The notes: generated from the letters alone by a model not told the origin. A stretch of 64,000 nt of DNA from Candidatus Omnitrophota bacterium (GCA_037131245.1 JBAXRK010000001.1:152385-216384), one strand, 5' to 3'; shown: positions 18,960 through 34,914, numbered from the stretch's first letter. Numbers and translations: made by a program.

Positions 18960-19708
18960 TTGCCTCCCGAAAAAATTGATCCAAAGAACCCCGCCAATCC
19001 GCCGGCCTTTTTATATTGCGCCCTGGGGTTACCCAATGTTTGCGGATCTTCAAAATTTTTCCAAACGCTGATATTATCGATGACCGTCTTATCGAGCGCG
19101 ATGCTCGCGCCCTCGCATTCAATAACGTAAGCGGGATAGGTCTGGTGAAGCTTCACGACCACACCCGGACGGACGCACAAGCCTTCCAGTTTATGCAACT
19201 GCTGGTCACTTTTACAATTGATGTACGCGATGCGGGCCGACTCGCCCACCTTCACGTCTGCCAGCGGGATAATAAAGCTCATGTCGGTCTTTTTGGCCTG
19301 TTTACAGCAATCCCCCTCGGGGATCGGCAAGCCATGCGGGCACTCTTTCGGATGGCCCAAAAGCGTACAAATACCGTTGACCAGCTCCAGCGACACCGTA
19401 TGCTCGAATTCACAGGCGATCTTTTCCATATCGCCGCCGCCCAGGACGTCGGCAATAAGGCGCTCCGCCAGGCGATGCGCGCGGATCAGCTGGCGGGCGC
19501 GAAGCTCGCCGTCCTCGGTCAACTTAACGGTCGTGCCATCCTTACTTAGGTCGATCAGGCCGCGGCAGGAAAGTTCCTGAAGCTGAGCCAGGTCAAAAGC
19601 GCTTTTCATCAGGCGCTTTAAAAACGCGACTGAAGTATCGCCGCGCTCTTTCATATGCCACAGCTGCTCAATATGTTCGTCCTGCTCAACCCTTTTGCTC
19701 ATGACCAT
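18956..19708 (-). CDS. DtxR-family metalloregulator fused to a FeoA-like domain
   Basis: N-terminal wHTH plus dimerisation region (RARQLIRAHRLAERLIADVLG, HPKECPHG). C-terminal SH3-like FeoA segment (LADVKVGESARIAYINCKSDQQLHKLEGLCVRPGVVVKL). Confidence 0.8.
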   Translation of the reverse strand: MVMSKRVEQDEHIEQLWHMKERGDTSVAFLKRLMKSAFDLAQLQELSCRGLIDLSKDGTTVKLTEDGELRARQLIRAHRLAERLIADVLGGGDMEKIACEFEHTVSLELVNGICTLLGHPKECPHGLPIPEGDCCKQAKKTDMSFIIPLADVKVGESARIAYINCKSDQQLHKLEGLCVRPGVVVKLHQTYPAYVIECEGASIALDKTVIDNISVWKNFEDPQTLGNPRAQYKKAGGLAGFFGSIFSGGK

Positions 19709-20581: not shown

Positions 20582-22585
20582 TTAATGTGCCGCAAAAAAC
20601 AATAACAAAACCCAATTAAGAACACCCATCAGCGTGAACGATGCCACATAGATCAGCGCGGTCATGCCCAGCGCCGCTTTCCAGCCCATTTCCCGGCCGG
20701 TCGCGACAACACTGACGACGCAGGGAAAGGTGATCGTCGTCACCACCACCGCCACGATCGTCTGCACATACGTGAGTGTCCCGGCTTCCACCATCTTGAG
20801 GATCAGCCCCGCGGAAGCCGCGCGGCTGGCAAGCGCCAGCAGGAACACATCAACGATATCTTTCGGCAAACCCATCCACCCTACGGTCAAAGGGGTCAGG
20901 GCTTTCTTGGCCATTGCTAAAAGACCTATCTTATCAAAAAAGAACAAACCTATGGCAGAAAAAAAGAAGATGGGCAAAGCTTCCTTCAAAAAGTCCTGGA
21001 TACGGTGATAGGTTTTTCGGCACACCGCCTTGAAACCCGGCAGCCGCAGCGGCGGGATCACCTGGATAAAAGAACTTTCGGCCTTGTCTTTAATGACAAC
21101 ATTGAGGATCATGCCCGCGATCATTTCAAAAAAGATCAGGATACCGAACACCAGCAAAAAGGCCCCGGCCCCCAGCTTGGCCAGAATGGCCATCGACATA
21201 CCGAGCTGCGATGAACAAGGGATCGCGAAAGCGATCAGAAAGATCGCGATGAACTTTTCTTTCGGGATCGTGATGCTGCGTGTGCTCATCGTGGCCATGG
21301 TCTTGCAACCAAAACCCAAAACCAGCGACGTGATGGCGTTCCCTGGAATGCCGATCTTCTCAAAAACGCGCTTTGAAAAGATCGTAAAATTCGTGATGTA
21401 ACCGCTGTCCTCAAAACAGCCAAAAACAAAAAAGAACACCGACAGGATCGGCAACACCGTGCACAAGGCATTGAATATCCCGAGGGTCAGGATACCGTGA
21501 TTGCCCAGCAGAAAATCATTCCAGAACGGCGGCAGCGCAAACGCCAGGATCATGTTGGTGATCGGCATGACCACCATAAAATTAATCGCGTGATCCAGGG
21601 CGCCCGACACATAGACCACCGCGTAATAGATCAGCACCAGCATGGCCGCGAAGATCGGAATGCCCAGCAACGGATCGCGGCTGGCCTGGGTAAGATGATA
21701 CGACAACCCTTGATATTCGATCTTCTGCTTGCGAACCACCACGTCCGAAATGCGGTCGACCCATTGATTGCGCTTATCATTAATGGCCTGGCGGGTATTG
21801 ACCTTGGCGTCACGGCAGATCTTGTCGATCTGGCCGAGGATCAGCGCGGCCTTTTCTTTGCCTATTTTCTTCTCCAGGAATTTACCGATGAACAGATCAT
21901 TAAGCAGGAACAACACCGCGATCTTATGCTTAAAAGCCAGGTCGAAGGGCAGCGCGGAGGTGATCTCATTAATGCGGCTTTCAATATGAAAACCATACTT
22001 GATACCCAGCGTGCTTTTGCGGGCCTTGGTGATAGCCGCCTTAACCTCTTCCTTACCCAAGCCGCGCATGGCCGCCGATTCTACGACAGGAATGCCCAGC
22101 AGGCGCTCAAGCTCGCCGGAATCCATCCACAGGCCCTTACGGCCGGTCTCGTCCATCGAATTAAGGACCAGGACCATCGGCGTCTCCAGCTCAAGGAGTT
22201 CCGCCGTCAGCAACAATGACTGCTTATAGTGGCTGGCGTCAATACACTGCACAATGACTTCCGGCGCTTCCGCCAGGATCATGTCACGCACGGCCACTTC
22301 TTCCTCGGAATGGATGTAAAGGCAATGCAGCCCGGGCGTATCAATGATCTCATAATGCTGATCCTTGATCCGGGTGATCGTGCGCTTCATTTCAATGGTG
22401 GTGCCGGGATAATTGGCGACGATATTGTATTCGCCGGTGAGGTTATTGAAGATCTGGGTCTTGCCGGTGTTTGGCAGGCCGACGATGGCGACCTTTTTGA
22501 CCGGGGTCATGTCCGACAACCCGACGGGATTCGACACCCCGCGGACAGGTTTCGGCTGATTTTCCGTATGACTCGACGACATCAT
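20582..22585 (-). CDS. feoB: Ferrous iron transporter FeoB
   Basis: G-domain VAIVGLPNTGKTQIFNNLTG, DTPG and NSMD motifs, followed by a polytopic membrane domain. 667 aa. Confidence 0.92.
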   Translation of the reverse strand: MMSSSHTENQPKPVRGVSNPVGLSDMTPVKKVAIVGLPNTGKTQIFNNLTGEYNIVANYPGTTIEMKRTITRIKDQHYEIIDTPGLHCLYIHSEEEVAVRDMILAEAPEVIVQCIDASHYKQSLLLTAELLELETPMVLVLNSMDETGRKGLWMDSGELERLLGIPVVESAAMRGLGKEEVKAAITKARKSTLGIKYGFHIESRINEITSALPFDLAFKHKIAVLFLLNDLFIGKFLEKKIGKEKAALILGQIDKICRDAKVNTRQAINDKRNQWVDRISDVVVRKQKIEYQGLSYHLTQASRDPLLGIPIFAAMLVLIYYAVVYVSGALDHAINFMVVMPITNMILAFALPPFWNDFLLGNHGILTLGIFNALCTVLPILSVFFFVFGCFEDSGYITNFTIFSKRVFEKIGIPGNAITSLVLGFGCKTMATMSTRSITIPKEKFIAIFLIAFAIPCSSQLGMSMAILAKLGAGAFLLVFGILIFFEMIAGMILNVVIKDKAESSFIQVIPPLRLPGFKAVCRKTYHRIQDFLKEALPIFFFSAIGLFFFDKIGLLAMAKKALTPLTVGWMGLPKDIVDVFLLALASRAASAGLILKMVEAGTLTYVQTIVAVVVTTITFPCVVSVVATGREMGWKAALGMTALIYVASFTLMGVLNWVLLLFFAAH

Positions 22586-23322
22586 TTTCCTAACAGCATT
22601 TTCGAAAGGAATGAACTATTCTTGGGTTTTTCAGGCGCAACGTCTTCGGTGTCTTCGTCCACAATGGTGCCGGCGGCGGCCATCGTTGTATTCTCAACGC
22701 TTTCAGCTTTCGGCTCAGCTTCGGCCGCGGGAGCCTCCGCAGCTGGCGCGGTAGCAATAACAGACTTTGAAAAGTATTTCCGCTTCGGGTCAATACCAAT
22801 GCCACGCAAATGGAAACAGACCGTGAAGGTCTTCCACTCAAAAACGCGCTCCAGCTCGGACTTGAGGACCGTTTCAATCTCAGCCAGCTCTTCATAGATC
22901 GACGTCACACCATCGAGGGCGGCCGAGATCTCGATCTCGACATCCTTACCTTTTCCCTTATGCTCGAAAGCCACATTCACGTCCGACGCACAGGGGTTCT
23001 GGCTGAGGATCTGCAAAATAAACTCGCGCACCGCCCGTTCGGGGATGCTCAGCGGCTTGCCGTCTTTTTCCACCTCGATCACGTGCGGCACCGGACGAGT
23101 CCGGGACGAAATGACCAGCAGGATAAAGCCCAGCAAAACGAAAAATCCACCCACCCAGAAAACCGCGGTCAGCGCTTTGGGCGCAGCCATGAGCTGGCCA
23201 TAGATCGTCATCAGCTTCTCTGATGACAGAGTGCCCAGACCGACCGCCAGAAGCACGATGCCCTGGAGAAAACAGAACGCGGCGGCAATAACCATAAAAA
23301 TTTTAGCTAGCAGAGACTTCAT
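22582..23322 (-). CDS. Membrane protein with Asp23/AmaP-like core (tentative) and Ala/Glu/Pro-rich tail
   Basis: Two N-terminal TM helices, then a region resembling alkaline-shock-protein folds (ERAVREFILQIL...VNVAFEHKGKGKDVEIEISAAL). 4-nt overlap with feoB. Confidence 0.45.
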   Translation of the reverse strand: MKSLLAKIFMVIAAAFCFLQGIVLLAVGLGTLSSEKLMTIYGQLMAAPKALTAVFWVGGFFVLLGFILLVISSRTRPVPHVIEVEKDGKPLSIPERAVREFILQILSQNPCASDVNVAFEHKGKGKDVEIEISAALDGVTSIYEELAEIETVLKSELERVFEWKTFTVCFHLRGIGIDPKRKYFSKSVIATAPAAEAPAAEAEPKAESVENTTMAAAGTIVDEDTEDVAPEKPKNSSFLSKMLLGK

Positions 23323-23334
23323 TCAATGTCCTTT

Positions 23335-23676
23335 TTAGAGATTAAACAACAATTCGCGACACGATGGAGGGGTTTTAAGCTTCCCCGTCTTCTCGATCCT
23401 CGCCACCACCGCCCGGGCCATACCCTTGATGTCTTCTTTAGACTTCACGGCATGATCGGGGTCAACTTTTACCTTGGCCACCAAGGCCATGATCTTCATC
23501 ATTTCGGGAAACGTGACCGCTTCACAGATAAGATGAATATCGTTCGTTAAAAGCGCCTCAACATCAAGACCCTTAAGCTCTTTTGCCAAAGGAGACTTTT
23601 TGTCGATCTGCTTCAAACCTGAACGCGCGGCAACCGTTAAAAACCCTTCCAACTGATGCTTCAAAGACGCTATCAT
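23335..23676 (-). CDS. Hypothetical protein (113 aa)
   Basis: ORF only; no motif recognised. Confidence 0.45.
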   Translation of the reverse strand: MIASLKHQLEGFLTVAARSGLKQIDKKSPLAKELKGLDVEALLTNDIHLICEAVTFPEMMKIMALVAKVKVDPDHAVKSKEDIKGMARAVVARIEKTGKLKTPPSCRELLFNL

Positions 23677-23693
23677 GCCCCAATTACCGGAGT

Positions 23694-23721
23694 ATTATAT
23701 TAATATAATAAGATAAATCAA
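23694..23721 (-). promoter_or_regulatory. Candidate sigma70-type internal promoter (TTGATT-16 nt-TATAAT) ahead of the 113-aa gene and feoB module
   Basis: Minus strand reads TTGATTtatcttattatattaaTATAAT in the AT-rich 45-nt gap after the porin stop. Confidence 0.4.
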
Positions 23722-25092
23722 TTAAAACTTTAGTATCAACGAAGATTCCACTCTGTTATCACTGGACTGAACGCCATCCGCCCAACGGGTTGAAAACCGC
23801 TGGTATTCAAGGCCCACCAGCAAGTCCTTGCTCAAATTGTACTTCAAGTTCGTGTAATAGGTCTTGTTATAGTCCCAAACCACCGTGGTCGCTCCGCGGT
23901 CAACGGCGGTCATGTCCTCATTAGCATCATCAATACCATAACCAAAGTTAACCTCGGTCTTTTTGATAGGATTAAGGGTCAATTCCAGGAAACCGCCCTT
24001 GACCGGTAAAGGTTTGGAAGCAGATGTTAAGGTCGCATTGCCCGTGGTCTGGGCCGGACCGCCCTGGAACTTGTTAAGGCCGGCGCCCGCAAAACCTTCA
24101 CCCTTGAGGCTCAGCCAATCGGTAAAAGCCAGGGTCAAACCGGTCGTTACCGCGTAGATCGGATCATGCGACACGCCATTCGTCGGCAAATTCAACTTGC
24201 CGTACATCCCGCCAAGGCCCAGGGTCGACTTCACGCCCAAAACAGTCTTCTCGTAACCGGCATAAGCCGCCGCGACGGGCATTCCTGAATCCTGGATCAA
24301 CGGATCATCGGAATCGATCGCGCCGATCTTGGTGGTCAATTTACCGCCAAGGACATTGCCCCACTTATTGATCAAACTGACCTGCGGATGGCGCGTGCCA
24401 AGGTTACCGGCACGATAGAGAACACCGGGATTAAGCAGATTGTCGTTCATGGGCGCGAAAATATCCCAATTCTGACCGGCATTGACCGCCCATTTGTCAA
24501 AATCGATCTGGGCAAAAGCCAAACGCAAGCGGGGATTATACGTACCAACCGTCCCGGATGAAGACGTGCCGGCAAAATCAAACTCGATCTGACCGGTGAG
24601 TTTCGCGCCGTTATCAAGGTCGGGCGCTTTGATCTTGAAACCCAAACGGGTATCCTGGGCGCTCAAATGAGCTTCCGGATCATCGCCGCCGGTCGCGCTA
24701 TTGGGGCGCAGCGCATTGTACTGGGTAATGCCGGTCGTGGTATTGCCGGCATCACGGCTGGTCAAAACAGCATCAGCCTTAATAAATCCATAGAGGGAAA
24801 TATCCATGCCGGTCTTAAGGAAATTACCGGACGGCGCGGGAGAAGCCACGGGCACAGAAGAAACAACGGTCATGGTCTTGGTTTTGACCTCGGCCACATC
24901 AGCGGCCTGGACGGCCTGGGCGCCTTTGAGCGCACCGACCTCGGCCTTCAGGGAAGCGTTCTCGGCTTCGAGTGCCTCGACGCGCTTGGCCAGGTCCTCA
25001 AGCGTTACCGCGGCCCGCGCGGGCAGCGCCGCCGCGAACGTGAACACAACGGACATGACAAACGCTAAAAAACACTTGCCTGTTTTTCCCAT
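23722..25092 (-). CDS. Outer-membrane porin with N-terminal coiled-coil
   Basis: Signal peptide ...FTFAAALPARA/AV. Coiled coil LEDLAKRVEALEAENASLKAEVGALKG. Long alternating beta-strand pattern rich in G/Y/N. Terminal ...SSLILKF aromatic residue. Confidence 0.75.
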   Translation of the reverse strand: MGKTGKCFLAFVMSVVFTFAAALPARAAVTLEDLAKRVEALEAENASLKAEVGALKGAQAVQAADVAEVKTKTMTVVSSVPVASPAPSGNFLKTGMDISLYGFIKADAVLTSRDAGNTTTGITQYNALRPNSATGGDDPEAHLSAQDTRLGFKIKAPDLDNGAKLTGQIEFDFAGTSSSGTVGTYNPRLRLAFAQIDFDKWAVNAGQNWDIFAPMNDNLLNPGVLYRAGNLGTRHPQVSLINKWGNVLGGKLTTKIGAIDSDDPLIQDSGMPVAAAYAGYEKTVLGVKSTLGLGGMYGKLNLPTNGVSHDPIYAVTTGLTLAFTDWLSLKGEGFAGAGLNKFQGGPAQTTGNATLTSASKPLPVKGGFLELTLNPIKKTEVNFGYGIDDANEDMTAVDRGATTVVWDYNKTYYTNLKYNLSKDLLVGLEYQRFSTRWADGVQSSDNRVESSLILKF

Positions 25093-25168
25093 ATAAATCT
25101 CCCTTGTTTGTGGCTAAAGATAAAGGAGATTATATAGGAAAAAATTGCCCTGCCACGCGCTTATTTAC

Positions 25169-25360
25169 TTATTTGATCCCCAGCTTCTGCAGGATGAGCA
25201 TCATCGGGCACCAGTTGGTGAATGCCGACTGCAGCAAGTTCGCGCCAATAAAGGCCGTGAACCACAGCCACAACGGGCTGACGAAATGAGCCAGCAGCAA
25301 ACTGATGAGTAAAAAAGTACCCGCAATACCCCGTAAGACTCGTTCCATAATATCCCCCAT
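25169..25360 (-). CDS. DUF2892 (YgaP-like) small membrane protein
   Basis: 63 aa, two hydrophobic helices, and ...ANLLQSAFTNWCPMM... typical of that family. Confidence 0.6.
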   Translation of the reverse strand: MGDIMERVLRGIAGTFLLISLLLAHFVSPLWLWFTAFIGANLLQSAFTNWCPMMLILQKLGIK

Positions 25361-28300
25361 TACTTTTGTTTCATCATCATGTAATAAATGACCGGAATGG
25401 CCGTGCGCGACAGAAGCGTGGACGCCACTTCCCCCGCGATCAAAGCCAGCGCGAGCCCCTGAAATATCGGATCGAATAAAATGACCGACGCCCCCACCAC
25501 CACCGCGGCCGCGGTCAGCAGCATCGGGCGGAAACGCTTGGCCCCGGCATCGACCACCGCCTCTTCCAGCGGCATGCCTTCCCGCCGGCGTAACTCGATA
25601 AAGTCCACCAGGATGATCGCGTTACGCACCACGATACCGGCGCCCGCGATCATGCCGATCATGGACGTCGCGGTAAAGAACGTGCCGGTCATCCAATGCG
25701 CCGGCAGAATACCGATCAAAGTGAGCGGAATGGGGAACATGATGACCAGCGGCTTTGAGAACGACTGGAACCAGCCGACCACCAACGCGTAGATCAAAAG
25801 AAGGACGATCCCGAACGCAATGCCTAAGTCACGGAACACTTCAAAGGTCACTTGCCACTCGCCGTCCCATTTTACCGACCATGTGTCACCGCTATCGGGC
25901 ATGGATGTAAAAAGTTGGTCGACTTTTTTATCCGCGACGAAAGGCGCGCCTGACGGCGGCGTTAGCGCGTCGATTTTCGGCTGAAGGCTCATGATCGCGT
26001 ACACCGGACTTTCCAAAGAGCCCTGAACATCGCCGGTCACATAGGTGACCCGCATCAGGTTCTTATGGTAAATGACCGGATCTTTGAACCCCTCTTCGAT
26101 CGTCACCAGATCGCGCAAAGCAATGCGATTGCCATCACGTGACAGGACCGTCAGCTCCAAAACGTTATCCAGCGACCGGCGCTTTTCCTGAGGCAGGCGC
26201 AGCACGATCTCGACCGGCTCATTTTGGCCGTCCAGATGCGCCAGGTCGGCGGCATTACCTTTTAAACTTTCCGTGATCAGGGCCGCCACCTTGCTCGTGG
26301 CGATCCCATTAAGGAAAGCCTTCTGCGTTTCGATCCGCAACCGGTAAAGCTTTTCAGGTTTGGCCACGAATGTGTCAACATCGGTCACATTCTTATCTGT
26401 ATTAAATAAATTTTCGATATCAGCGGCCAATTTGCGGCGGCCTTCCTCATCGGGACCATAGACCTCGGTCACGAGCGTGGCAAGGACCGGCGGGCCCGGC
26501 GGCACTTCGGCCACCTGCACATGCGCTTTATATTTCGCGGCGATCTCATGGATCTTCGGGCGCACCGACACCGCGATCGCGTGGCTCTGGCGCTTGCGTT
26601 CATCCTTTGACGCCAGATTCACCTGCAAGTCGGCCTGCCAGGGACTTGAGCGCAGGAAATAATGCCGCACCAAGCCGTTGAAATTATACGGCGCATTGAT
26701 CCCCGTGTACGCCTCGATATCACGGACTTCCGGGACGGTCGTCAGATAATCGGCCATTTCACCGATGGCCTGCGCCGTCACCTTGACCGGCGTGCCTTCG
26801 GGCATATTTAAAATAACCTGAAATTCATTCTTGTTATCAAAGGGCAGCATCTTGACTTTCACCGCTTTGAGCGGCACCAGCAGGATCGAGAAAAGCAAGA
26901 GAACGCCCATGCCGACCAGAAAGATCAAGCGGACCTTCGGCTTTTCGATCAGCGGCTTCATATAAGAACGATACAAACGGGTCAACCAGTCCTCGCGCTC
27001 GCCTTCCTCGTGAACTTTAAGCAGGCCCTTCTGGTGAGCACCACCCAAGATCTTGCACGCCGCCCAGGGGGTGGCCACGAAAGCCACCATCATTGAAATA
27101 AGCATTGCCATGCTCGAACCGATCGGGATCGGAAGCATATAAGGGCCCATGAGCCCGCCGACGAAGGCCATCGGCAGGATCGCCGCGATAACAGTCAGCG
27201 TCGCCAGGATCAGCGGCCCCTGCACTTCATTGACCGCGTCGATCGCGACCGCCAGAATGTCCCGCCCGCGATTCTTCGCCATCCGTAGGTGCCGGACGAT
27301 ATTCTCCACATCGACGATCGGATCATCGACCAGGATCCCGATGGAAAAGATCAAAGCAAAAAGCGTGATGCGATTAAGCGTAAAACCCAGGAAATAAAAG
27401 CCCGCCAGCGTGAGTGCCAGCGTCATCGGAATAGCGACCGCCACCACGCCCGCTTCGCGCCAGCCAAGCACCACCGCGATCAGGACACTCACGCCCATGA
27501 CCGCCAGCGCCATATGGAACAAAAGCTCGTTCGATTTTTCTTCCGCCGTGCGGCCGTAATCACGGGTGACCGTATAATCCACACCCGCCGGGATCACGCC
27601 GCCCCGTAAACCGTCGACCTTCTTTAATATCTTCTGGCATAACTGCGCCGCATTGGTCCCTTTGCGCTTGGAAACAGAAAGCGTCGCCGCCGCGAAGGGG
27701 CCCTTATCTGTTACGGTCGACTGCGCGCCAAAACGGATGTTCACGTTCTGGTCGTTTTCATCGGGCCCGTCAACCACCGTCGCCACATCTTTTAGCAGAA
27801 CCTCCGCGCCCTGGCTGATACTGACCACCATATTCTCCAGGTCGGCCTTTGAACGGAAGAACGCATCGGCCTCGACAATGATCGCCCCCCCTTCGGCATC
27901 AACGTTGGCTGATCCACTCTTAACATTCGTCTGCTGGATCAAGGCCGCGATCCCGGAAGGATCAAGCAGGCGCTCTTTTAATTTCGCCTCGTCAAACGCG
28001 ACCCGGAACTGCCGCTGACGGCCGCCGGTCACTTGCGTTTGGGAGACATCGGGGATGACCGACACCTCATTCTGAACATCGGTCACGGTATGACGCAGCG
28101 CGACTTCATCGAGTGTTTTTGAATGGAACGTGAGCGTCAGGACCGGCACATCATCGATCGACCGCACTTTAATGAGTGGCTGGGACCCGCCCGGCGCCAG
28201 GGCGTCCAAATTCGCGCTAACCTTGCTATAAAGCTTGATGAGGCTTTTCTCGATATCCTCGCCCACCTTAAAACGCACCGAGATGATCGCGCCACCGGAA

Positions 28301-28578
28301 TGGATCATCGAATAAACGTACTCAACGCCCTTGATCTCCCAGAGCCGGCGTTCGCCGACATTCACGATGCGTTTTTCAACTTCTTCCGTGCTGGCCCCGG
28401 GATAAGAAACAAAGATATCGAACATCGGCACGCTGATCTGCGGTTCTTCCTCGCGCGGCAGATTCACTACCGCCAGCCAGCCGACAAAAACCGAGAACAG
28501 AATGATAAGCGGCGTCACCTTGGAACGGGCAAACATCCCAACAACTTTGGCAATGAAACTTTCCTGGGGGTTATTCAT
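25360..28578 (-). CDS. RND efflux transporter permease (AcrB/AcrD/AcrF family)
   Basis: 1072 aa with the 12-TM / two-large-loop layout. The N-terminal TM followed by LPREEEPQISVP... is typical of the family. Confidence 0.9.
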   Translation of the reverse strand: MNNPQESFIAKVVGMFARSKVTPLIILFSVFVGWLAVVNLPREEEPQISVPMFDIFVSYPGASTEEVEKRIVNVGERRLWEIKGVEYVYSMIHSGGAIISVRFKVGEDIEKSLIKLYSKVSANLDALAPGGSQPLIKVRSIDDVPVLTLTFHSKTLDEVALRHTVTDVQNEVSVIPDVSQTQVTGGRQRQFRVAFDEAKLKERLLDPSGIAALIQQTNVKSGSANVDAEGGAIIVEADAFFRSKADLENMVVSISQGAEVLLKDVATVVDGPDENDQNVNIRFGAQSTVTDKGPFAAATLSVSKRKGTNAAQLCQKILKKVDGLRGGVIPAGVDYTVTRDYGRTAEEKSNELLFHMALAVMGVSVLIAVVLGWREAGVVAVAIPMTLALTLAGFYFLGFTLNRITLFALIFSIGILVDDPIVDVENIVRHLRMAKNRGRDILAVAIDAVNEVQGPLILATLTVIAAILPMAFVGGLMGPYMLPIPIGSSMAMLISMMVAFVATPWAACKILGGAHQKGLLKVHEEGEREDWLTRLYRSYMKPLIEKPKVRLIFLVGMGVLLLFSILLVPLKAVKVKMLPFDNKNEFQVILNMPEGTPVKVTAQAIGEMADYLTTVPEVRDIEAYTGINAPYNFNGLVRHYFLRSSPWQADLQVNLASKDERKRQSHAIAVSVRPKIHEIAAKYKAHVQVAEVPPGPPVLATLVTEVYGPDEEGRRKLAADIENLFNTDKNVTDVDTFVAKPEKLYRLRIETQKAFLNGIATSKVAALITESLKGNAADLAHLDGQNEPVEIVLRLPQEKRRSLDNVLELTVLSRDGNRIALRDLVTIEEGFKDPVIYHKNLMRVTYVTGDVQGSLESPVYAIMSLQPKIDALTPPSGAPFVADKKVDQLFTSMPDSGDTWSVKWDGEWQVTFEVFRDLGIAFGIVLLLIYALVVGWFQSFSKPLVIMFPIPLTLIGILPAHWMTGTFFTATSMIGMIAGAGIVVRNAIILVDFIELRRREGMPLEEAVVDAGAKRFRPMLLTAAAVVVGASVILFDPIFQGLALALIAGEVASTLLSRTAIPVIYYMMMKQK

Positions 28579-29947
28579 GAGCCGCTCCCGTTAATCTGGC
28601 CGTTAAGGCCTTCATGCCCGCTTCATCCATTTTACCACCCAGGAAATACAAGCGGGCTTCGCAGGCATATAGCGCGGCCTTCAGTTCCTCAACAGCATTC
28701 AGCGTGTTAAAACGGGCCTCACGCGCGTCTTCCAGGTCCATGACCGATCGACGGCCTTCATTATAAAGAGGCAGCAAGAGTTCAACGGCTTTAGCGGCAT
28801 CCTCAGCCATTGCCCGGACGACGGGATAATTCGCCCGCAAAGCGTCGAACCGGGCGCTTTCCCGGCTGATATCAACCGCTGTCGCATCCTTGAGCGCGGC
28901 GGCCTCGTTTTGGGCGCGGCTTAAAAGAGCAACGGCTTCTTTCTGCCGGCCGGCGCGCGTCCGGTCAAAGAGCGGCAGTTCCGCGACGATCCCACCCGAC
29001 GCATTATTGCCCCCGTGGCCAAAAAGATCGTGACGGTTATTCGTGCCATCCGCGGTCAGGGTAATGGTGGGCAAAGCGCTGTCTTTCGCGCGCTTAACCT
29101 CTTCCTGGCCGGCATTGATCCGGGCACCGGCCGCCACAAAGTCAGGGCGCGACGCCACGGCTTTTTCCAACAAAGCAACAGCGTCAGTATCTGCGAAATC
29201 CGCGTCCGGCAGCGCCGCGGGAAGCGCGATCTCATTCTTGATCGGCTCACCCATCATGATATTAAGCAGCATCCGCATCGCTTTCACCTGTCGGAGCATA
29301 TCATTCTTTGCCTGACTGAAACGTCCGTACCGCACACGGGCGGCATAATAATCCGCTCCGAGCACAAGGCCCTTATCTTTTAGCGTCTCAGCTTTCTTAA
29401 GATCAGCCTGCGCGGCTTTTTCGGCTTCTTCGGCGGCCACAAGCAGGCGGTCCATCGCCAGCGCGCTGGTAAAAGCATCGTGCGCCATCAGGAACGTTTC
29501 CATCTTCACAAAAGCTTCATCGGCCTGCGCGGCCTTGACCTGTTCGCGGGCAACGCGAGCGCGGCGGACGGTCTGCATCGCGTCGAACAATGGCCAACGC
29601 AAATGAACACCGCCCTGAAGGTCGCGCTGATGCCGCGGCGTATTCAAGCGGTTAAGATCAAAGTCAGCGGATGTAAATCGTTCCTGGCGCAGCAGCATGC
29701 CGAACACATTGACCGGGTCATCGCTTTCGGTATAACCGGCCGATATCGACACGCCCGGCCAGAAACCGGCGGAGGCCTGCATTTCGCGGGCCCAGCTTAA
29801 CTCCACATCAGCTCCAGCGGACTTTAATTTAGGATAATGATCGAGAACCTTGACGTAAAATTGATCAAAGGAAAGTGGCGCGGCAAGAGCAGGTAAAGAC
29901 AGCGCCGCGCAAAAAATGAACGTTATAACGATCGCGCTCCATCTCAT
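28571..29947 (-). CDS. TolC-like outer membrane efflux factor
   Basis: I place the start at the internal ATG 29947..29945 (MRWSAIVITFIFCAALSLPALAAP signal peptide). That ATG overlaps the upstream TGA (ATGA). Two-fold repeated helical/beta layout. 8-nt overlap with the RND gene. Confidence 0.8.
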   Translation of the reverse strand: MRWSAIVITFIFCAALSLPALAAPLSFDQFYVKVLDHYPKLKSAGADVELSWAREMQASAGFWPGVSISAGYTESDDPVNVFGMLLRQERFTSADFDLNRLNTPRHQRDLQGGVHLRWPLFDAMQTVRRARVAREQVKAAQADEAFVKMETFLMAHDAFTSALAMDRLLVAAEEAEKAAQADLKKAETLKDKGLVLGADYYAARVRYGRFSQAKNDMLRQVKAMRMLLNIMMGEPIKNEIALPAALPDADFADTDAVALLEKAVASRPDFVAAGARINAGQEEVKRAKDSALPTITLTADGTNNRHDLFGHGGNNASGGIVAELPLFDRTRAGRQKEAVALLSRAQNEAAALKDATAVDISRESARFDALRANYPVVRAMAEDAAKAVELLLPLYNEGRRSVMDLEDAREARFNTLNAVEELKAALYACEARLYFLGGKMDEAGMKALTARLTGAAHE

Positions 29948-30300
29948 TGTTCGAGCCCCTTCTCCACAGCTATTGCGACCGTTTCCACGCAACCCACGCA
30001 TGACAATTTCTTGGCGGCGCGGATCTCTTTGCATTTGGTCGACCCGGCAACAGACAGCAGCGAATTCTCACATGCCCGCACCTGCTCGGGATGATCTTTT
30101 TCAAGAAGGACCCTGGCGGCGTACAAAGCGCCGCACTCTCCATCGGGAGCCCGCCCTCCGCCACAAGTCGCGCACTTTTCGACCACGTCCTGCGAGAGGG
30201 CGAACTGGTCCTCAAACGCGCGAACAACCGCCTGGGCACAGTTCAGCTTTTGATACCCCGGCTTACCGATGTAATGCGCTTTGGCTTTCTCGACAGACAT
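29944..30300 (-). CDS. C_GCAxxG_C_C family putative redox protein
   Basis: 118 aa. LNCAQAV..., CATCGGG...ECGALYAA..., KCKEI..., SCVGCVE cysteine pattern of that family. Confidence 0.65.
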   Translation of the reverse strand: MSVEKAKAHYIGKPGYQKLNCAQAVVRAFEDQFALSQDVVEKCATCGGGRAPDGECGALYAARVLLEKDHPEQVRACENSLLSVAGSTKCKEIRAAKKLSCVGCVETVAIAVEKGLEQ

Positions 30301-30301
30301 T

Positions 30302-30931
30302 CTACCCCCTTAGTCCCGTCATGATAAATATCGTGAACTTCCGCTTCTTTCCATCGGCGTCGGGCTTTGACATTTCGGCCGCCGGATGGTCCCGCAGATC
30401 TGCAAAACCGGCCTCAATGAATTGCGCGCGCAGCGCCGCCCGATCGAACCCGTGATGATGGACGCCTTGATGATCATCGTGAAAGCGCCCCTGCTCGGGG
30501 TCCAGGTCCGTGACCGACAGGATCCCGCCTGAATGAAGCGCGTCGTAAAGCCTTTTTAACAAAAACCCCGTATCCTTCACATGATGCAAGGCCATGTTCA
30601 CGGCAATAAAATGATATTTCCCGGGGATCGGCCCGGCATGATCCTGATCAATGAACAGGGTCCTGACCCGGGCAACACCTTCACGATGGATCTTCTCTTT
30701 AAAAACGTCCAGCATGACCTTTGACGCGTCGGCGCCGGTGACCGAACGGACCTTGGGGCGGAGCGCCAGCGCCAGATTCCCGGTGCCGCAGCCAAAATCC
30801 AGCATGTCCATGGAAGGTGTCAACGCAACGTAGCGGACGATAGCCCGAGCTACTTCCCGCGCCAACTTCAGGCGCGGCGGCGTATCCCAAAAGGCAGCCG
30901 CTTTGTCGAAGCCATGCAATTCCTCGCTCAT
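30302..30931 (-). CDS. Class I SAM-dependent methyltransferase
   Basis: Motif I MLDFGCGTGNLAL, followed by VTGADASKVML and FIAVNMALHH. Confidence 0.8.
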   Translation of the reverse strand: MSEELHGFDKAAAFWDTPPRLKLAREVARAIVRYVALTPSMDMLDFGCGTGNLALALRPKVRSVTGADASKVMLDVFKEKIHREGVARVRTLFIDQDHAGPIPGKYHFIAVNMALHHVKDTGFLLKRLYDALHSGGILSVTDLDPEQGRFHDDHQGVHHHGFDRAALRAQFIEAGFADLRDHPAAEMSKPDADGKKRKFTIFIMTGLRG

Positions 30932-31242
30932 AACGCCCCCTTTTGCAATTCCATCGCTTTTAATCTCGGGCAGTTGATCTTGAGCCTCTTTCCCTTAATG
31001 AGCGCCTCCCCGATCTTGGCATGAGCGCGCGTCACAATATTCCCGAAAGTCTGACGCGAGATCTTCATCTGTTTAGCGGCGTCTTCCTGATAAAAACCTT
31101 CCACGTCAGCCAGGCGCACAGCTTCCAGCTCATCGACCTCAAGCACGACTTCCTGACGCGCGTGCGGCGGAATGCCGCGCGGGTCAAAATAGAAAGCCTT
31201 CAGGTCAAGGCAGATCTTACGGCTCTTACGCGGACGCGGCAT
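30928..31242 (-). CDS. DUF134/UPF0251 putative DNA-binding protein
   Basis: MPRPRKSRKI... N-terminus and a sigma-70 region-4-like HTH LEAVRLADVEGFYQEDAAKQMKISRQTFGNIVTRAHAKI. Confidence 0.7.
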   Translation of the reverse strand: MPRPRKSRKICLDLKAFYFDPRGIPPHARQEVVLEVDELEAVRLADVEGFYQEDAAKQMKISRQTFGNIVTRAHAKIGEALIKGKRLKINCPRLKAMELQKGAL

Positions 31243-31259
31243 AACGCTCCTTCAAACAG

Positions 31260-31281
31260 ATTATTAGCATATGCCAATAAT
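31260..31281. promoter_or_regulatory. 22-bp near-perfect palindrome (candidate operator)
   Basis: ATTATTAGCATATGCCAATAAT: arms ATTATT/AATAAT and core GCATATGC are symmetric, with one mismatched pair. It overlaps the -10 of the DUF134 operon promoter. Confidence 0.5.
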
Positions 31282-31305
31282 ACCCTATGGCCATCGATCT
31301 GTCAA
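31277..31305 (-). promoter_or_regulatory. Candidate sigma70 promoter of the DUF134-methyltransferase-TolC-RND operon
   Basis: Minus strand reads TTGACAgatcgatggccatagggTATTAT (17-nt spacer). GAAGGAG lies 4 nt before the ATG at 31242. Confidence 0.55.
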
Positions 31306-31333
31306 GAAAAACGAGCGGCTGGCAGAAGAACCC

Positions 31334-31362
31334 TTGACATGCCCCGGCGTGCCTGCCATACT
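31334..31362 (+). promoter_or_regulatory. Candidate sigma70 promoter of fur
   Basis: TTGACAtgccccggcgtgcctgcCATACT (17-nt spacer), divergent from the DUF134 promoter. Confidence 0.45.
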
Positions 31363-31404
31363 CTATATAGGAAATGAAAACCATTACCTGTAAGGAATAC
31401 GGCC

Positions 31405-31878
31405 ATGAAAAACCATCCCAGCGAACTTCAGAGCAAGATCAACAGCCAGGGGTACCGGATCACCAAACCCCGCCAAAAGATCATTGACGCTTTAAGCCAT
31501 TCCAAGAACTGCCTGAGCGTTGATGATATTTACATGGCCATACGGGCCAAAGGAGATAGTGTCGGGGTCACCACGATCTACCGGGCGGTCGATAGCCTGG
31601 CCAAGGCCGGTATTATCAGAAAATTATCACTTATCAGTGGAAAAACCTCTTACGAGCTCATTGACCCTGAGCTTAAGCACCACCATCACCTGATCTGCCG
31701 CAGCTGCCAGCGGGTCATCGATTACTCTGACTTTATTAATGAAGAGGTACTGCTCATCAAGAAACTGGAAAAGATCGTTTCACAGACCCATCATTTTGAT
31801 ATTGAAGACCATATGCTGTCGTTTACCGGGCTTTGTCAGCTATGTCAAAAACCAGGATCAATGAATAAAGTGAGGTGA
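31405..31878 (+). CDS. fur: Fur-family metalloregulator
   Basis: wHTH (RITKPRQKIIDAL...VTTIYRAVDSL), HHHHLIC regulatory site, CRSC and CQLC structural Zn pairs. AAGGAA RBS. Confidence 0.85.
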   Translation: MKNHPSELQSKINSQGYRITKPRQKIIDALSHSKNCLSVDDIYMAIRAKGDSVGVTTIYRAVDSLAKAGIIRKLSLISGKTSYELIDPELKHHHHLICRSCQRVIDYSDFINEEVLLIKKLEKIVSQTHHFDIEDHMLSFTGLCQLCQKPGSMNKVR

Positions 31879-31883
31879 TCTAT

Positions 31884-32009
31884 ATGTATAGCCTACTCTT
31901 TAGAACAGGATGTTTCGTTGGCAGAGCGTTCTTCCCGGTTTTAGCCATTGGCGCTGTCGTTGCCGCGATCGTGATCGCCGCGTCAAAGAACACAGAAACC
32001 GAGAAGTAA
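31884..32009 (+). CDS. Small hydrophobic peptide (41 aa), below ORF-track cutoff
   Basis: Hand translation: MYSLLFRTGCFVGRAFFPVLAIGAVVAAIVIAASKNTETEK. GAGG lies 8 nt upstream inside the fur stop region. Followed by a hairpin. Confidence 0.4.
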   Translation: MYSLLFRTGCFVGRAFFPVLAIGAVVAAIVIAASKNTETEK

Positions 32010-32018
32010 CGTTACCAG

Positions 32019-32047
32019 GGCCGCAGCTGATCCTGATGGCTGCGGCC
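32019..32047 (+). terminator. Stem-loop after fur and the small ORF
   Basis: GGCCGCAGC-11 nt-GCTGCGGCC (9-bp perfect stem). No clear U-tract. Confidence 0.4.
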
Positions 32048-32063
32048 AAACTGCAATAATAAC

Positions 32064-32092
32064 TTGACACCCACACTTTAGTGTGGTAATGT
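32064..32092 (+). promoter_or_regulatory. Candidate sigma70 promoter with embedded inverted repeat, giving a leaderless Bro-N transcript
   Basis: TTGACAcccacactttagtgtggTAATGT (17-nt spacer). The spacer contains CCACAC-TTTA-GTGTGG. Only 6 nt separate the -10 from the ATG at 32099, and there is no SD. Confidence 0.5.
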
Positions 32093-32098
32093 TTATTT

Positions 32099-32929
32099 AT
32101 GAATAACGAGATAACCATCTTCGAAGATTACAAGATCCGCCGTATTTATGATGAGCCGACGGAAACATGGCACTTCTCCGTTGTGGACGTCATTCAAGCC
32201 TTAATTCAACAGCCTGACTACCAGACAGCCAGAAAATACTGGAATAAACTTAAAGAGCGCCTTCGTCAGGAAGGAAGTCAGTCGGTGACAAAATGTCACC
32301 AACAGAAATTGCTTGCGGCCGATGGTAAAAAGTATCTAACCGATGTCGCGACAGCGGAAATCCTTCTGCGCCTGGTTCAGTCCATCCCCAGCCCTAAAGC
32401 TGAACCGATCAAACTCTGGCTCGCCAAAGTCGGCTATGAACGCATGCAAGAAATAGCCGACCCCGCCCTTTCGCTTAACCGTGCCAGGGAAACCTGGAAA
32501 AAACACGGCCGCAGCTCTCAATGGATCCAGCAACGGATGCTGGGCCAGGAGACTCGCAACAAATTAACGGATTACTGGAAAGAGAATGATATTAACAAGC
32601 CTGACGAATTTGCCATTCTGACAAACATCATTCATCAGGAATGGGCCGAAGTCACTGTCAAAGAACACAAGGCCCTGAAGGGACTAAAAACACAGAACTT
32701 GCGCGATCATATGAACGAGGCGGAACTTATCTTTACCGCCCTTGCCGAAATGTCCAGCCGTAAGATCGCTGAAAGCGTGGAAGCCAAAGGCATGCCGGAA
32801 AATGCGCGGGCCGGCAAGAAGGGAGGCGGCATCGCCCGTAAAGCCAGGATCGAGTTAGAAACCGCCACCGGCAAGAAAGTCATTTCGGCCGGCAATTATT
32901 TGACGACGAAAGAGTTACCACGGCCGTAA
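32099..32929 (+). CDS. Bro-N domain protein (antirepressor-like)
   Basis: ITIFEDYKIRRIYDEPTETWHFSVVDVIQAL... and IQSIPSPKAEPIKLWLAKVGYERMQEI resemble the widespread Bro-N family. Visibly AT-richer than surrounding genes. The 3' end overlaps the convergent CDF-NifX gene by 15 nt. Confidence 0.7.
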   Translation: MNNEITIFEDYKIRRIYDEPTETWHFSVVDVIQALIQQPDYQTARKYWNKLKERLRQEGSQSVTKCHQQKLLAADGKKYLTDVATAEILLRLVQSIPSPKAEPIKLWLAKVGYERMQEIADPALSLNRARETWKKHGRSSQWIQQRMLGQETRNKLTDYWKENDINKPDEFAILTNIIHQEWAEVTVKEHKALKGLKTQNLRDHMNEAELIFTALAEMSSRKIAESVEAKGMPENARAGKKGGGIARKARIELETATGKKVISAGNYLTTKELPRP

Positions 32930-34009
32930 CCACTGGATACGGCTGCGGCCGAAACCGGTGGCCGCATTGGCTGAAGAAGCCATTTTCAAGCGACCGGCTT
33001 GATAATCCGCGAAGGTTGAGCCCACCGTCTGCAGCGTATCAAAATAATAGATCCTGACCCCCTGCCCTCTTAATTCCGAGAACATATGCGGTCCCACCTT
33101 CCCCGCCAGCACCACGCCGATCCGGCTCTCACGGACGATCGACCCGAGAATAATACTTTCTTCCACGTTATACATCCGGCTATTGTTAGCTCGGATCGAG
33201 GTGGTTTTTTTCTTAAGGTCGAGCAGGCAGAAATACGGCGCCCGCCCCAGCAACGTTGAGACCGGACCGTCCCACATGCCGGTTTCAGCCGGAATAAGGA
33301 TCATGTTGCGCCGCGCCAGTGTGTCCTCCACGCCGCGCGTAAAAACGAACATGATCGCAACCGCCAACGCCGCCAGCGAAAATGCCACGCGTTGTTTTGT
33401 TTCCAGAGAGACCTTGGCGCGCTCCTTTTCAAAATACTCTTTGAAGATCTGCATCGCGCCCTGGATCTGAAAGCCCCCGATCACGATCGCCCCGATCGGG
33501 TCACAGTAAACCAATCCCATGACCGCGAGAAATATCCCCAGGAACCCGAAACAAGCCGCGAAAAGATTCGTCTTGTTCTGGATCATGAACATAAATAAAT
33601 TGCTGTTCTTCGGATCGCGCTCCAGCGCTTTCGATGAGATGTAATACAAGTAGCCATTAGCCAGGATCGAAATTTTTGCGACCAACAAGGCAAAGAGTCC
33701 CGGGCGGGCCGGAATACGCGACACAATGATCGCGATATTATCCGCGCAGATCCACACTCCCGACAGGAACATGATCGCCCCGATCAGAATGCTCTGCGTC
33801 GCAAGAGAGAGCCTTTTGTCCCTGGCCCCGTGATAATTGATCCCGAACGCGAAACAATCCGAGAACGAATGCACCGCCTCAGCCACCAGCACTTTACTGC
33901 CGGTCACCAATCCCACCACCGCCTTGATCAGCGTCATACTGATGTGATAGATCAGGGACCAGGAAACAACCTTTTCCTGCTCAGCGGCATCGGCTTTTTT
34001 ACGGTTCAT
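32915..34009 (-). CDS. CDF-like membrane domain fused to a C-terminal NifX/NafY-like (FeMo-cofactor-carrier fold) domain
   Basis: Start moved to ATG 34009..34007, which overlaps the upstream TGA (ATGA). TM2-type AEAVHSFSD. No CDF cytoplasmic domain; instead an extra TM and LGRAPYFCLLD...GVVLAGKVGPHMFSELRGQGVRIYY. Confidence 0.7.
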   Translation of the reverse strand: MNRKKADAAEQEKVVSWSLIYHISMTLIKAVVGLVTGSKVLVAEAVHSFSDCFAFGINYHGARDKRLSLATQSILIGAIMFLSGVWICADNIAIIVSRIPARPGLFALLVAKISILANGYLYYISSKALERDPKNSNLFMFMIQNKTNLFAACFGFLGIFLAVMGLVYCDPIGAIVIGGFQIQGAMQIFKEYFEKERAKVSLETKQRVAFSLAALAVAIMFVFTRGVEDTLARRNMILIPAETGMWDGPVSTLLGRAPYFCLLDLKKKTTSIRANNSRMYNVEESIILGSIVRESRIGVVLAGKVGPHMFSELRGQGVRIYYFDTLQTVGSTFADYQAGRLKMASSANAATGFGRSRIQWLRPW

Positions 34010-34914
34010 TTCAATTTCCCCCGAATATGAACAAGGCACTTGCGGCATTTATCTCTTTTATCGCGCGCCGCCCCCTGCATCTGGCCGTCGCACCAGGTAT
34101 GGTCGATCTCCCAGCAATGCTTCCCATGATTGGGGAAAGACGGGCACTGCACCTGCCGCTCAGCGGGGCAATTTAAGATCTCCCAGCAATTCGACTTCAT
34201 CGTGGTCGAGCAATAAACCTTAAGGTCGCCGGTGCGCTTTTTCATCTCCAGGATCAATTTATCCCGCCCGTCCTTGCTATCAAGGTCCTTCCGGCCGATA
34301 TCCTCCAGGAACCCCTCCATGTTCTTGCAATAATCCCTGACCGCGTTAAGCAAATGCTTGGTGCGCGCGTTCACTTCCTCATCAGGCATCGCGTCGCGCC
34401 AGACCTCGAAACCGCCAAGCACGCGCCCTTTCTTATCGATCAGCGGGCCGGCGGAAACCACTATCGAATGCTCCCTGTTAATACGGTCGATCACCTTGAC
34501 CCTTTTGCCGATCACGGACTTGCGCGTTTTCATCGCCTGCTTGATCGCACAATGATTAGTGCACAGGTCGCTCTTGAAAATATCCGCGCAAACCACCTTT
34601 CCGATCGCGTCATTCAGGTTCAAGCCCGTAAAATCAAGACAGGCCGGATTCATGAACTGGATCTTCATATCCTTGTCGACCACGAAGAACGGATAGGTGG
34701 ACGCGCGTAAAATACTCACCGCGAAGGTCGCCATGTCTTCAAAATCACCGAAAGCCTTGGTCTTGGACGAAAGGAAGTCCAGGAAATCATCCTGCGCCCC
34801 ATCCTCACCCGAACCAGCCTTCTTTTTTGAACCGCGATGCTCTTCGGTGGTTTTAAGCGGCGCCTTTACCGCCCTGAGTTCACTGAGGATCTTGGCCATC
34901 CGGTCGAAGTTCAT
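34006..34914 (-). CDS. Stand-alone PAS sensor with C-terminal double CWE cysteine-rich (two-CW-like) domain
   Basis: PAS core FFVVDKDMKIQFMNPACLDFTG... with CADIFKSDLCTNHC. C-terminus NCWEILNCPAERQVQCPSFPNHGKHCWEIDHTWCDG...CRKC. Confidence 0.65.
   Translation of the reverse strand: MNFDRMAKILSELRAVKAPLKTTEEHRGSKKKAGSGEDGAQDDFLDFLSSKTKAFGDFEDMATFAVSILRASTYPFFVVDKDMKIQFMNPACLDFTGLNLNDAIGKVVCADIFKSDLCTNHCAIKQAMKTRKSVIGKRVKVIDRINREHSIVVSAGPLIDKKGRVLGGFEVWRDAMPDEEVNARTKHLLNAVRDYCKNMEGFLEDIGRKDLDSKDGRDKLILEMKKRTGDLKVYCSTTMKSNCWEILNCPAERQVQCPSFPNHGKHCWEIDHTWCDGQMQGAARDKRDKCRKCLVHIRGKLK

Follow-up and report, generated by a model that had tools for sequence, protein, structure and literature searches.

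The genome of a Candidatus Omnitrophota bacterium (GCA_037131245.1) contains, in the 64,000-nucleotide stretch JBAXRK010000001.1:152385-216384 that was analysed here as a whole and is called the window below (positions are counted from its first letter), an operon in which a TolC-like outer membrane factor (OMF) and an inner-membrane permease of the resistance-nodulation-division (RND) type are encoded side by side. The gene for the periplasmic adaptor, or membrane fusion protein (MFP), is truly missing beside this translationally coupled pair, and its absence is a conserved anomaly, not an accident of assembly. The OMF gene, the RND gene and their neighbours in the operon are all on the minus strand; the six genes span 25169-31242 in the order DUF134 regulator, S-adenosylmethionine (SAM)-dependent methyltransferase, C_GCAxxG protein, OMF, RND permease and DUF2892 protein (Table 1), and each of the five junctions, as read from the sequence, is either an overlap or a spacing of 1 nt. 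The stop of the OMF gene and the start of the RND gene both fall in ATGAATAA, which confirms the 8-nt overlap (28571-28578) described in an earlier first-pass annotation of the same stretch. The stops of the DUF134 and C_GCAxxG genes overlap the starts of the methyltransferase and OMF genes, respectively, by 4 nt (ATGA in both cases), the methyltransferase and C_GCAxxG genes are separated by 1 nt, and the RND stop and DUF2892 start overlap by 1 nt (TAATG). The start of the OMF was placed at 29947, which is M30 inside a long open reading frame (ORF) at 28571-30034 and is followed by the signal peptide MRWSAIVITFIFCAALSLPALA. The gene upstream of the OMF had already been described as a C_GCAxxG protein, and this assignment holds with a score above the family cut-off.

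Table 1. Features of the efflux operon and of its surroundings in the window.
Feature	Position	Strand	Evidence
DUF134-family helix-turn-helix regulator, 104 aa, operon gene 1	30928..31242	-	Pfam DUF134 E=1e-18
Class I SAM-dependent methyltransferase, 209 aa	30302..30931	-	Pfam Methyltransf_23/25/11
C_GCAxxG_C_C putative redox protein, 118 aa, cytoplasmic	29944..30300	-	PF09719, 30.8 bits, cut-off 27
TolC-like OMF, 458 aa incl. signal peptide	28571..29947	-	Pfam OEP (PF02321) E=7e-45, two repeats
RND inner-membrane permease, 1072 aa	25360..28578	-	Pfam ACR_tran (PF00873) E=1.9e-145
DUF2892 / YgaP-like transmembrane protein, 63 aa	25169..25360	-	PF11127 E=2e-14
DcaP-like outer-membrane porin, 456 aa, signal peptide, N-terminal coiled coil	23722..25092	-	PDB 6eus E=3e-6
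Fur-family regulator, divergent from operon	31405..31878	+	Pfam FUR E=2e-27
FeoB ferrous-iron transporter	20582..22585	-	Pfam FeoB_N, Gate, FeoB_C
Sigma-70-type promoter, TTGACA, 17-nt spacer, TATTAT	31277..31305	-	11/12 consensus positions
22-bp palindromic operator (putative) ATTATTGGCATATGCTAATAAT	31260..31281		overlaps -10 element

The permease is a full-length member of the RND superfamily with the AcrB-like architecture. NF033617 aligns with residues 21-1068 of 1072 (402 bits, cut-off 1250), and the best matches in the PDB are TriC and MexK (about 1e-60), TriC being aligned over residues 25-1066. Membership of the curated families is not reached, as the scores are 266.6 bits for TIGR00915 (HAE-1, cut-off 940) and 207 bits for TIGR00914 (HME, CusA/CzcA, cut-off 701). 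The fourth transmembrane segment (TM4) reads LVDDPIVDVEN, which has the adjacent Asp-Asp pair of AcrB and is not of the HME type, where the motif is D-x5-D-x6-E. Because the HAE-1 score exceeds the HME score, TriC and MexK are the nearest structures and TM4 carries the Asp-Asp pair, the protein is best placed in an uncharacterised HAE-1-like clade outside the curated family, and not with the CusA/CzcA-type metal pumps. The choice between HME and HAE clades that the first-pass annotation had raised is thus answered in favour of HAE-1-like (267 against 207 bits, both far below the cut-offs), and its idea of a metal exporter is left weak. All residues of the proton relay are in place, namely D418, D419, R985, R1015 and T1022, which correspond to D407, D408, K940, R971 and T978 of AcrB. 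Four of them (D418, D419, R1015 and T1022) are invariant in 19 orthologues without and 53 orthologues with a linked MFP gene, and the position of AcrB K940 is an invariant Arg, R985, in this RND family. Since the relay residues are invariant in both clades, the pump appears to be active and proton-driven.

The partner is a TolC-family OMF with a signal peptide and two tandem OEP repeats, and TIGR01844 matches its residues 25-450 (E=6e-30, below the cut-off of 225). In the OMFs of the MFP-less clade described below, the periplasmic tip carries the strongly conserved motifs KG(M/L)(I/V)LG(A/S)D(Y/F)(Y/F) and EGR(K/R/Q)S, whereas the MFP-partnered OMFs have QG(Y/L)LQ(K/R)xD(L/V)L and EGL(E/V)(K/N)T, and the former also share a C-terminal extension of 12 aa. 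On the side of the permease, the MFP-less clade shows a relative loss of constraint in the PC2 subdomain (p=6e-5) and slightly higher conservation in the docking subdomains, and there are 12 type-II divergent (conserved-but-different) sites with an excess in PN1. The tip motifs and the subdomain signals would be compatible with an altered partner interface of the OMF, short of proof; the rate shifts and type-II sites of the RND are suggestive at best and localise no new OMF-contact surface.

The absence of an adaptor gene from the window was tested in three ways. Pfam models of the HlyD/MFP family gave zero matches among 56 ORFs of the window, a set that took in all minus-strand ORFs from 150 aa upwards. 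A family-specific hidden Markov model (HMM), built from 49 adaptors of orthologous operons and run with --max on the stop-to-stop ORFs of 40 aa or more in all six frames, gave a best match of only E=2.4 across the window, while as a positive control it recovered unrelated MFPs elsewhere at 1e-28 and 2e-21. Finally, phmmer searches with E. coli AcrA and with an Omnitrophota CusB-like MFP found no match in the window. The first-pass annotation was correct in this respect: neither the operon nor the window holds a tripartite RND system with a co-encoded HlyD-type adaptor. Its further suggestion that another protein here may replace the adaptor fared less well, as no protein of the operon looks suitable: the C_GCAxxG protein has no signal peptide, and the DUF2892 protein has 63 aa with apparently two transmembrane segments. 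The neighbouring 456-aa ORF, considered as a hidden adaptor for its coiled coil, was likewise rejected; it has a signal peptide, resembles the DcaP-like porin 6eus, and reaches only E=2.4 with the MFP HMM.

Adaptors do exist in the same genome. A contig from sample SRR12676967 (L092) overlaps the left end of the window with 1468/1468 nt identical and extends beyond it, and two complete tripartite operons are found there on the same (minus) strand, at L092 3625-11311, some 2.2 to 9.8 kb outside the left end of the window. One encodes an OMF (418 aa), a MacA-like MFP with a membrane-proximal domain (323 aa) and MacB, and the other an OMF (469 aa), an EmrA-like MFP (282 aa) and an MFS transporter; the two MFP genes are 3.4 and 8.2 kb past window position 1, which puts them about 29 and 34 kb away from the gene of the RND. 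From these two operons it follows that the genome makes adaptors in the order OMF-MFP-pump, and in the RND operon the middle slot is empty. The two operons are preceded by an ECF sigma/anti-sigma pair and an LTXXQ metal-resistance protein, and the MacA-like MFP has no match to HMM positions 115-151, so that it appears to be without most of the alpha-hairpin.

With adaptors encoded so close, the pump could be a normal tripartite system whose MFP acts in trans, either as a relocated cognate or as a borrowed protein. Such a system would agree with the essential role of adaptors in all studied RND pumps (PMC8277102), with the lack of structural compensation for adaptor loss in both RND and OMF, and with the strong conservation of the OMF tip across the clade, which continued contact with the hairpin of a partner would lead one to expect. 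On the other hand, every MFP seen belongs to a different transporter class (MacB-type ABC, MFS, CusA-like) and is part of its own operon, and the component that is usually shared between systems is the OMF, not the adaptor. Known cases of borrowing involve close paralogues: AcrD of E. coli has no adjacent OMF gene either, and it borrows AcrA, the adaptor of a close paralogue. An adaptor in trans is to be taken as a serious possibility, if a somewhat improbable one, and the comparison of orthologous loci bears on it further.

Orthologues were surveyed in species-representative genomes, and the gene neighbourhoods of the 80 best loci were compared (RND 44-70% identical over the full length, more than 10 phyla; loci are denoted by L numbers). 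Clustering of the neighbouring ORFs gave a canonical operon of the form OMF-MFP-RND-(102-aa P-II-like)-DUF2892, in which the MFP is a HlyD-type lipoprotein of about 360 aa encoded between OMF and RND and matching HlyD_D23, HlyD_3 and Biotin_lipoyl_2. Operons of this type occur in Bacteroidota, Ignavibacteria, Armatimonadota, Acidobacteriota and others, with RND proteins 44-53% identical to that of the window over the full length. They resemble the window in the OMF upstream, the DUF2892 downstream and the recurring ArsR, thioredoxin and SQR-type neighbours; they differ in having the MFP and usually the P-II-like gene, both lost in the clade of the window, which has gained C_GCAxxG and DUF134 genes upstream and has different OMF tip motifs. 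In a tally of 84 loci, with the window counted and the duplicate L002 left out, a full MFP is present in 53, a mini-MFP in 5 and none in 26. In the RND tree all Omnitrophota-type loci group in a single clade, which also takes in three loci of Elusimicrobia, one of Methylacidiphilaceae and one that is unclassified, and no member of this clade has an MFP gene (bootstrap 86/100 for the MFP-less clade and 95/100 for its Omnitrophota part). As all MFP-less Omnitrophota-type loci form one clade, the simplest reading would be that the MFP gene was lost once, anciently, in the common ancestor of the Omnitrophota, Elusimicrobia and Methylacidiphilaceae lineages. Divergence within the clade reaches about 50% identity with the OMF gene still directly upstream, and the pair has thus been retained long after the loss. 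The RND of the window is 100% identical to a protein assigned at NCBI to a metagenome-assembled genome of Candidatus Omnitrophota, on a 247-kb contig, and close RND homologues (63-86% identity) are numerous in other such genomes of Omnitrophota.

As for an adaptor in trans, the 80 best loci include no MFP-bearing Omnitrophota paralogue of this RND family from which one could be borrowed, and the flanks of the clade (24 loci, 426 kb) hold a single MFP gene, which is CusB-like and attached to its own CusA-like RND. This gene is in L089 (79% RND identity), where CsoR, YHS, CusB-like MFP and CusA-like RND genes are encoded at 15324-20204 without an OMF gene, 2.5 kb from the MFP-less OMF-RND pair; an adaptor within such a distance of the cassette is a point for action in trans. 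The two systems of L089 have complementary gaps, and sharing of the OMF between them is a possibility.

The same arrangement in L089 also agrees with a further explanation, according to which the two genes are uncoupled neighbours: the RND alone would move its substrate from the inner membrane to the periplasm, and the OMF would be an exit duct for pumps that have none. RNDs such as HpnN and the MmpL-type proteins are known to work alone in this direction. In L001 an RNase T gene splits OMF and RND, and in L014 no OMF gene adjoins the RND gene, as might be expected of unlinked functions. In the subclade of the window, however, OMF and RND genes are either overlapping or separated by no more than 10 nt (overlaps of 8 nt in the window, 4 nt in L003 and 1 nt in L089; gaps of 4 nt in L086 and 10 nt in L004), as would suit production of the two proteins in stoichiometric amounts; the docking domain of the RND, of the AcrB type, is complete and well conserved, and the genome of the window has other OMF genes for its other pumps. 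We consider an uncoupled pair to be quite unlikely.

A second reduction of the adaptor is seen in the Chlorobi. Five loci (L038, L039, L041, L045 and L049) have mini-adaptors of 132-145 aa directly upstream of the RND gene (e.g., L049:9579-10001), which match only positions of about 283-357 of the MFP HMM, corresponding to the membrane-proximal domain. The lipobox is present in 5/5 of them, and dN/dS values of 0.23-0.44 indicate purifying selection. In L047 and L051, also of the Chlorobi, even the mini-adaptor is gone and a 150-bp spacer is found instead. The Chlorobi reduction is, as judged from these sequences, independent of the loss in the Omnitrophota clade, and because a membrane-proximal domain alone cannot reach the OMF, the RND family would have given up its bridging adaptor twice. 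If a full adaptor acting in trans were still required, the purifying selection on such a mini-adaptor would be difficult to understand. No report of an RND-OMF pair wholly without an adaptor was found in a literature search.

The surroundings of the operon bear on yet another explanation, namely that the OMF-RND pair was taken into a magnetosome gene cluster (MGC) as an exporter of iron, of a chelator or of some by-product of biomineralisation. The first-pass annotation, which favoured a role in metal or chelator export linked to biomineralisation, was right that the pair sits between two halves of an MGC. One is a mam-type block at 32915-53324 with MamB/M-type CDFs, magnetochrome, a MamE-like protease, a MamA-like TPR protein, a MamQ-like LemA protein and TauE, and the other, at 7148-18959, contains HEAT-repeat proteins and two actin-like (Volactin/Mad28-type) proteins. 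The pair is next to feoB, fur and dtxR-feoA, and fur and feoAB adjoin the cassette in 6 related loci (Fur homologues beside the OMF-RND pair are found in L009, L010, L011 and L013), so that some link with iron physiology is possible, one not specific to MGCs. All mam-type and mad-type proteins of the window were then compared with the 24 loci of the RND clade including their flanks of +/-10 kb. No homologue of Mad28, HEAT-Mad, magnetochrome, MamQ, MamA or MamB was found in these loci, and the sole matches were generic ones to a trypsin-like and a CDF protein. The cassette with its feoB and dtxR-feoA neighbours recurs in these related loci without mam or mad genes; in L008 it is followed by feoB (E=6e-291) directly after the DUF2892 gene and then by a DtxR-FeoA homologue, and the vicinity is free of MGC genes. 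Elsewhere the context is varied: L003 has DUF134-C_GCAxxG-OMF-RND-YgaP_TM adjoining pst/phoU and ACR3/ArsC, L004 the same cassette plus a porin, L089 ArsR-C_GCAxxG-OMF-RND-YgaP_TM, L088 fur-feoA-feoB-OMF-RND-YgaP_TM amid housekeeping genes, and L086 ArsR-thioredoxin-DUF6132-(CoA-disulfide-reductase/rhodanese/TusA/DsrE fusion)-OMF-RND-YgaP_TM.

The cassette is therefore not specific to MGCs but a standard Omnitrophota gene set, which lies between the MGC parts by chance of this genome. That the pair could prove to be a common adaptor-less arrangement unrelated to MGCs had been foreseen in the first-pass annotation as fatal to its proposal, and this is what was found. The operon moreover has its own regulator, the operator is conserved in loci outside MGCs, the RND is HAE-1-like and not HME-like, and no report of RND genes in MGCs was found in the literature. 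A dedicated magnetosome exporter is thus very improbable. For magnetosome biology this is a negative but useful result, since the intervening segment of roughly 12 kb is an ordinary Omnitrophota block (efflux cassette plus feoB/fur) and, until more evidence is available, is better left out of the biomineralisation machinery.

The family-wide gene context gives some indication of what the pump may export. Recurring neighbours are ArsR and CsoR-like regulators, SQR/FCSD-like flavoproteins, MBL-fold proteins, thioredoxin, glutaredoxin, HMA, ACR3/ArsC, rhodanese/TusA/DsrE and fur/feoAB. A DUF2892 gene is downstream of the RND gene in 38 orthologous loci, and P0032, a protein of 1149 aa with three member sequences (JGI, Logan and ENA), is an RND that continues at its C-terminus, after a linker of about 30 aa, into DUF2892. 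Because such a natural fusion exists, DUF2892 is likely to be a physical part of the pump, as a small accessory membrane subunit; a literature search gave no direct precedent pairing DUF2892 with an RND. In Azospira, an RND-SQR-MFP operon, a DUF2892 gene and iron-uptake genes are induced by H2S (PMC5358917), and the membrane sulfurtransferase YgaP is under the control of YgaV, a regulator that responds to sulfide (PMC4730233, PMC9774250). With modest confidence, we infer that the substrate is a thiophilic or amphiphilic stress compound.

Taken together, the best explanation would be a self-contained six-gene stress-efflux operon with its own regulation, which has feoB and fur as usual neighbours and is not dedicated to biomineralisation. 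The RND would act as a proton-driven trimer with an intact Asp-Asp/Arg/Arg/Thr relay, helped by the small DUF2892 membrane subunit, and would pick up from the membrane or the periplasm a toxic compound of thiophilic or amphiphilic character, under a stress that, from the gene context, may be related to sulfide/persulfide, arsenic or metal sulfide. Hand-over to the co-translated OMF would occur without a full-length adaptor, either by direct docking of the RND funnel domain on the remodelled OMF tip or in two steps with passage through the periplasm. Operation without a dedicated full-length adaptor, by either route, is the explanation to which we tentatively give preference, short of calling it probable. 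It is favoured because the adaptor has been reduced twice in the family with the Chlorobi remnant under selection, and because the survey gave no MFP-bearing Omnitrophota paralogue and one MFP of another class in 426 kb. The stronger form, in which the clade works with its TolC-like channel without any periplasmic adaptor, is doubtful; it would be the end point of a natural reduction series within one orthologous family, from the full HlyD-type adaptor of most phyla through the Chlorobi mini-adaptor to none, with remodelled OMF tips, in the MFP-less clade.

Several points weigh against operation without an adaptor. Every tripartite RND pump tested experimentally needs one (PMC4446572, PMC8277102), and for this reason its prior probability is low. 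The comparison of orthologues covered gene neighbourhoods, and in the genome of the window itself, of which about 75 kb of the 247-kb contig was covered, there are the MFPs described above 29 and 34 kb away, the MacA-like one with its membrane-proximal domain. There are no compensating insertions in the MFP-less clade, either in the OMF beyond its 12-aa C-terminal extension or in the RND (2 aa at most); compared with AcrB (21% identity), the RND has no large insertion in the docking subdomains and no indel of more than 18 aa, and its 12 type-II sites are not enriched in the docking domain. The change of the OMF tip motifs is one phylogenetic event and inseparable from lineage history, and the proposed substrate rests on mixed neighbours (sulfur, arsenic, copper and iron).

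The system shares with AcrAB-TolC, MexAB-OprM and TriABC-OpmH the 12-TM RND with two large periplasmic loops, the TolC-family OMF in the operon, the Asp-Asp pair of TM4, the Arg of TM11 and the conserved Thr. In those systems AcrA, MexA and TriA/TriB are indispensable, whereas here there is no adaptor gene; in comparison with AcrB, identity is about 21%, K940 is replaced by Arg and the NCBIfam scores are far below the family cut-offs. Operons of the AcrAB-TolC type differ also in that DUF2892, C_GCAxxG, methyltransferase and DUF134 genes are added here. Like AcrD, the pump is encoded by an RND gene without an adjacent adaptor gene, but its OMF is translationally coupled to it and an adaptor-bearing paralogue of the same family is absent from the 80 best loci. 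Among published adaptors, BesA, which has no hairpin, comes nearest as a precedent for such weakening (PMC3807786). BesABC of Borrelia burgdorferi is similar in that the adaptor part which normally reaches the OMF is missing and another way of OMF recruitment is implied (PMC3807786, PMC2279261); it differs in that BesA keeps its lipoyl, beta-barrel and membrane-proximal domains, while the Chlorobi adaptor is cut to the membrane-proximal domain alone and the adaptor gene is absent here. The ygaVP operon and the SqrR/BigR/CstR-type sulfide-stress operons resemble the present family in the YgaP-like transmembrane domain (PMC9774250, PMC4730233, PMC5358917) and in the ArsR/CsoR-type regulators, rhodanese/TusA/DsrE, SQR-like flavoprotein, MBL-fold and thioredoxin genes around its members. 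The window differs from them, as its DUF2892 protein has no rhodanese domain, its regulator is DUF134 and not ArsR, and the operon contains no sulfur enzyme.

If coupling without an adaptor is true, it would overturn the rule that RND-OMF coupling always needs one. A large, coherent clade has kept OMF and RND coupled down to overlapping codons despite an ancient loss of the adaptor, which provides a testable lead in efflux, and pumps working in this way would offer a natural system in which to ask about the role of the adaptor in pump activation, OMF opening and sealing of the conduit. The Chlorobi provide a sister case, where the adaptor survives only as its RND-binding domain. The RND family is entirely uncharacterised, despite its occurrence in more than 10 phyla and next to genes of sulfide, arsenic and metal stress. 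The interest of the locus thus rests on the evolutionary pattern of adaptor loss and not on the magnetosome connection.

Regulation of the operon can be described in some detail. A sigma-70-type promoter about 35 nt upstream of the DUF134 start is the best promoter-like site within 23000-31900, and the 22-bp palindrome listed in Table 1 recurs with 0-3 mismatches directly upstream of the DUF134 gene in L003, L004, L008 and L025 (L003:5512, L004:5855, L008:5869 and L025:3811), which are Omnitrophota loci and one Elusimicrobia locus. As the palindrome co-occurs with DUF134 and not with fur across loci, it was assigned to the former, and a reading of the promoter palindrome as a Fur-type site was rejected. 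The DUF134 regulator would thus bind this putative operator, which is probably the first candidate operator for a regulator of the DUF134 family. With its own promoter and the conserved palindrome, the operon appears to be under regulation of its own.

The remaining genes of the cassette are conserved to different degrees. DUF134 homologues head the cassette in L003, L004 and L008, and C_GCAxxG homologues are just upstream of the OMF gene in L003, L004, L006, L008, L019 and L089, mostly in direct adjacency. The methyltransferase matches only generic methyltransferases in the PDB; close homologues flank the cassette in L004, L006 and L008, and the match in L086 is weaker and shorter. Downstream of the operon, the 456-aa porin has a beta-rich body and F as its last residue. 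A promoter-like site precedes its gene (25156-25129), which is probably transcribed separately from the operon, and a porin homologue is found at the equivalent position in L004 only.

In the wider segment of about 18.9-32.9 kb the genes are dtxR-feoA, FecR-like, feoB, AmaP-like, porin, the operon, fur and Bro-N. The protein of 113 aa without functional annotation and the AmaP-like membrane anchor of 246 aa (22582-23676, minus strand) form a conserved pair with homologues at L090:6187-7482 (E=1e-45 and 3e-117), close to the RND gene of L090, and their arrangement is like that of an Asp23/AmaP-type stress module. The Fur and Bro-N genes (31405-32929) are the sole plus-strand genes scanned in an otherwise minus-strand stretch. 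They lie exactly where the mam block meets the efflux cassette, and may be the scar of a rearrangement or insertion; the Bro-N domain is familiar from phage antirepressors.

Two features of the MGC itself were also observed. Nitro_FeMo-Co (NifX/NifB-like cofactor-binding) domains are encoded on the minus strand at 32915-34048, 39201-39908 and 49687-51300: a protein of 377 aa combines such a domain with a MamB-like CDF transporter, a magnetochrome protein of 537 aa carries another as a fusion, and the third is in a separate protein of 235 aa. Such combinations are unusual for magnetosome proteins. The tandem actin-like genes (8929-10452 and 10471-11463, minus strand) each match Pfam Volactin at E of about 1e-79, the first having an N-terminal extension of about 180 aa, and after the pair come a coiled-coil protein of 278 aa (11491-12327) and a ParA/MinD-like ATPase (12305-13063).

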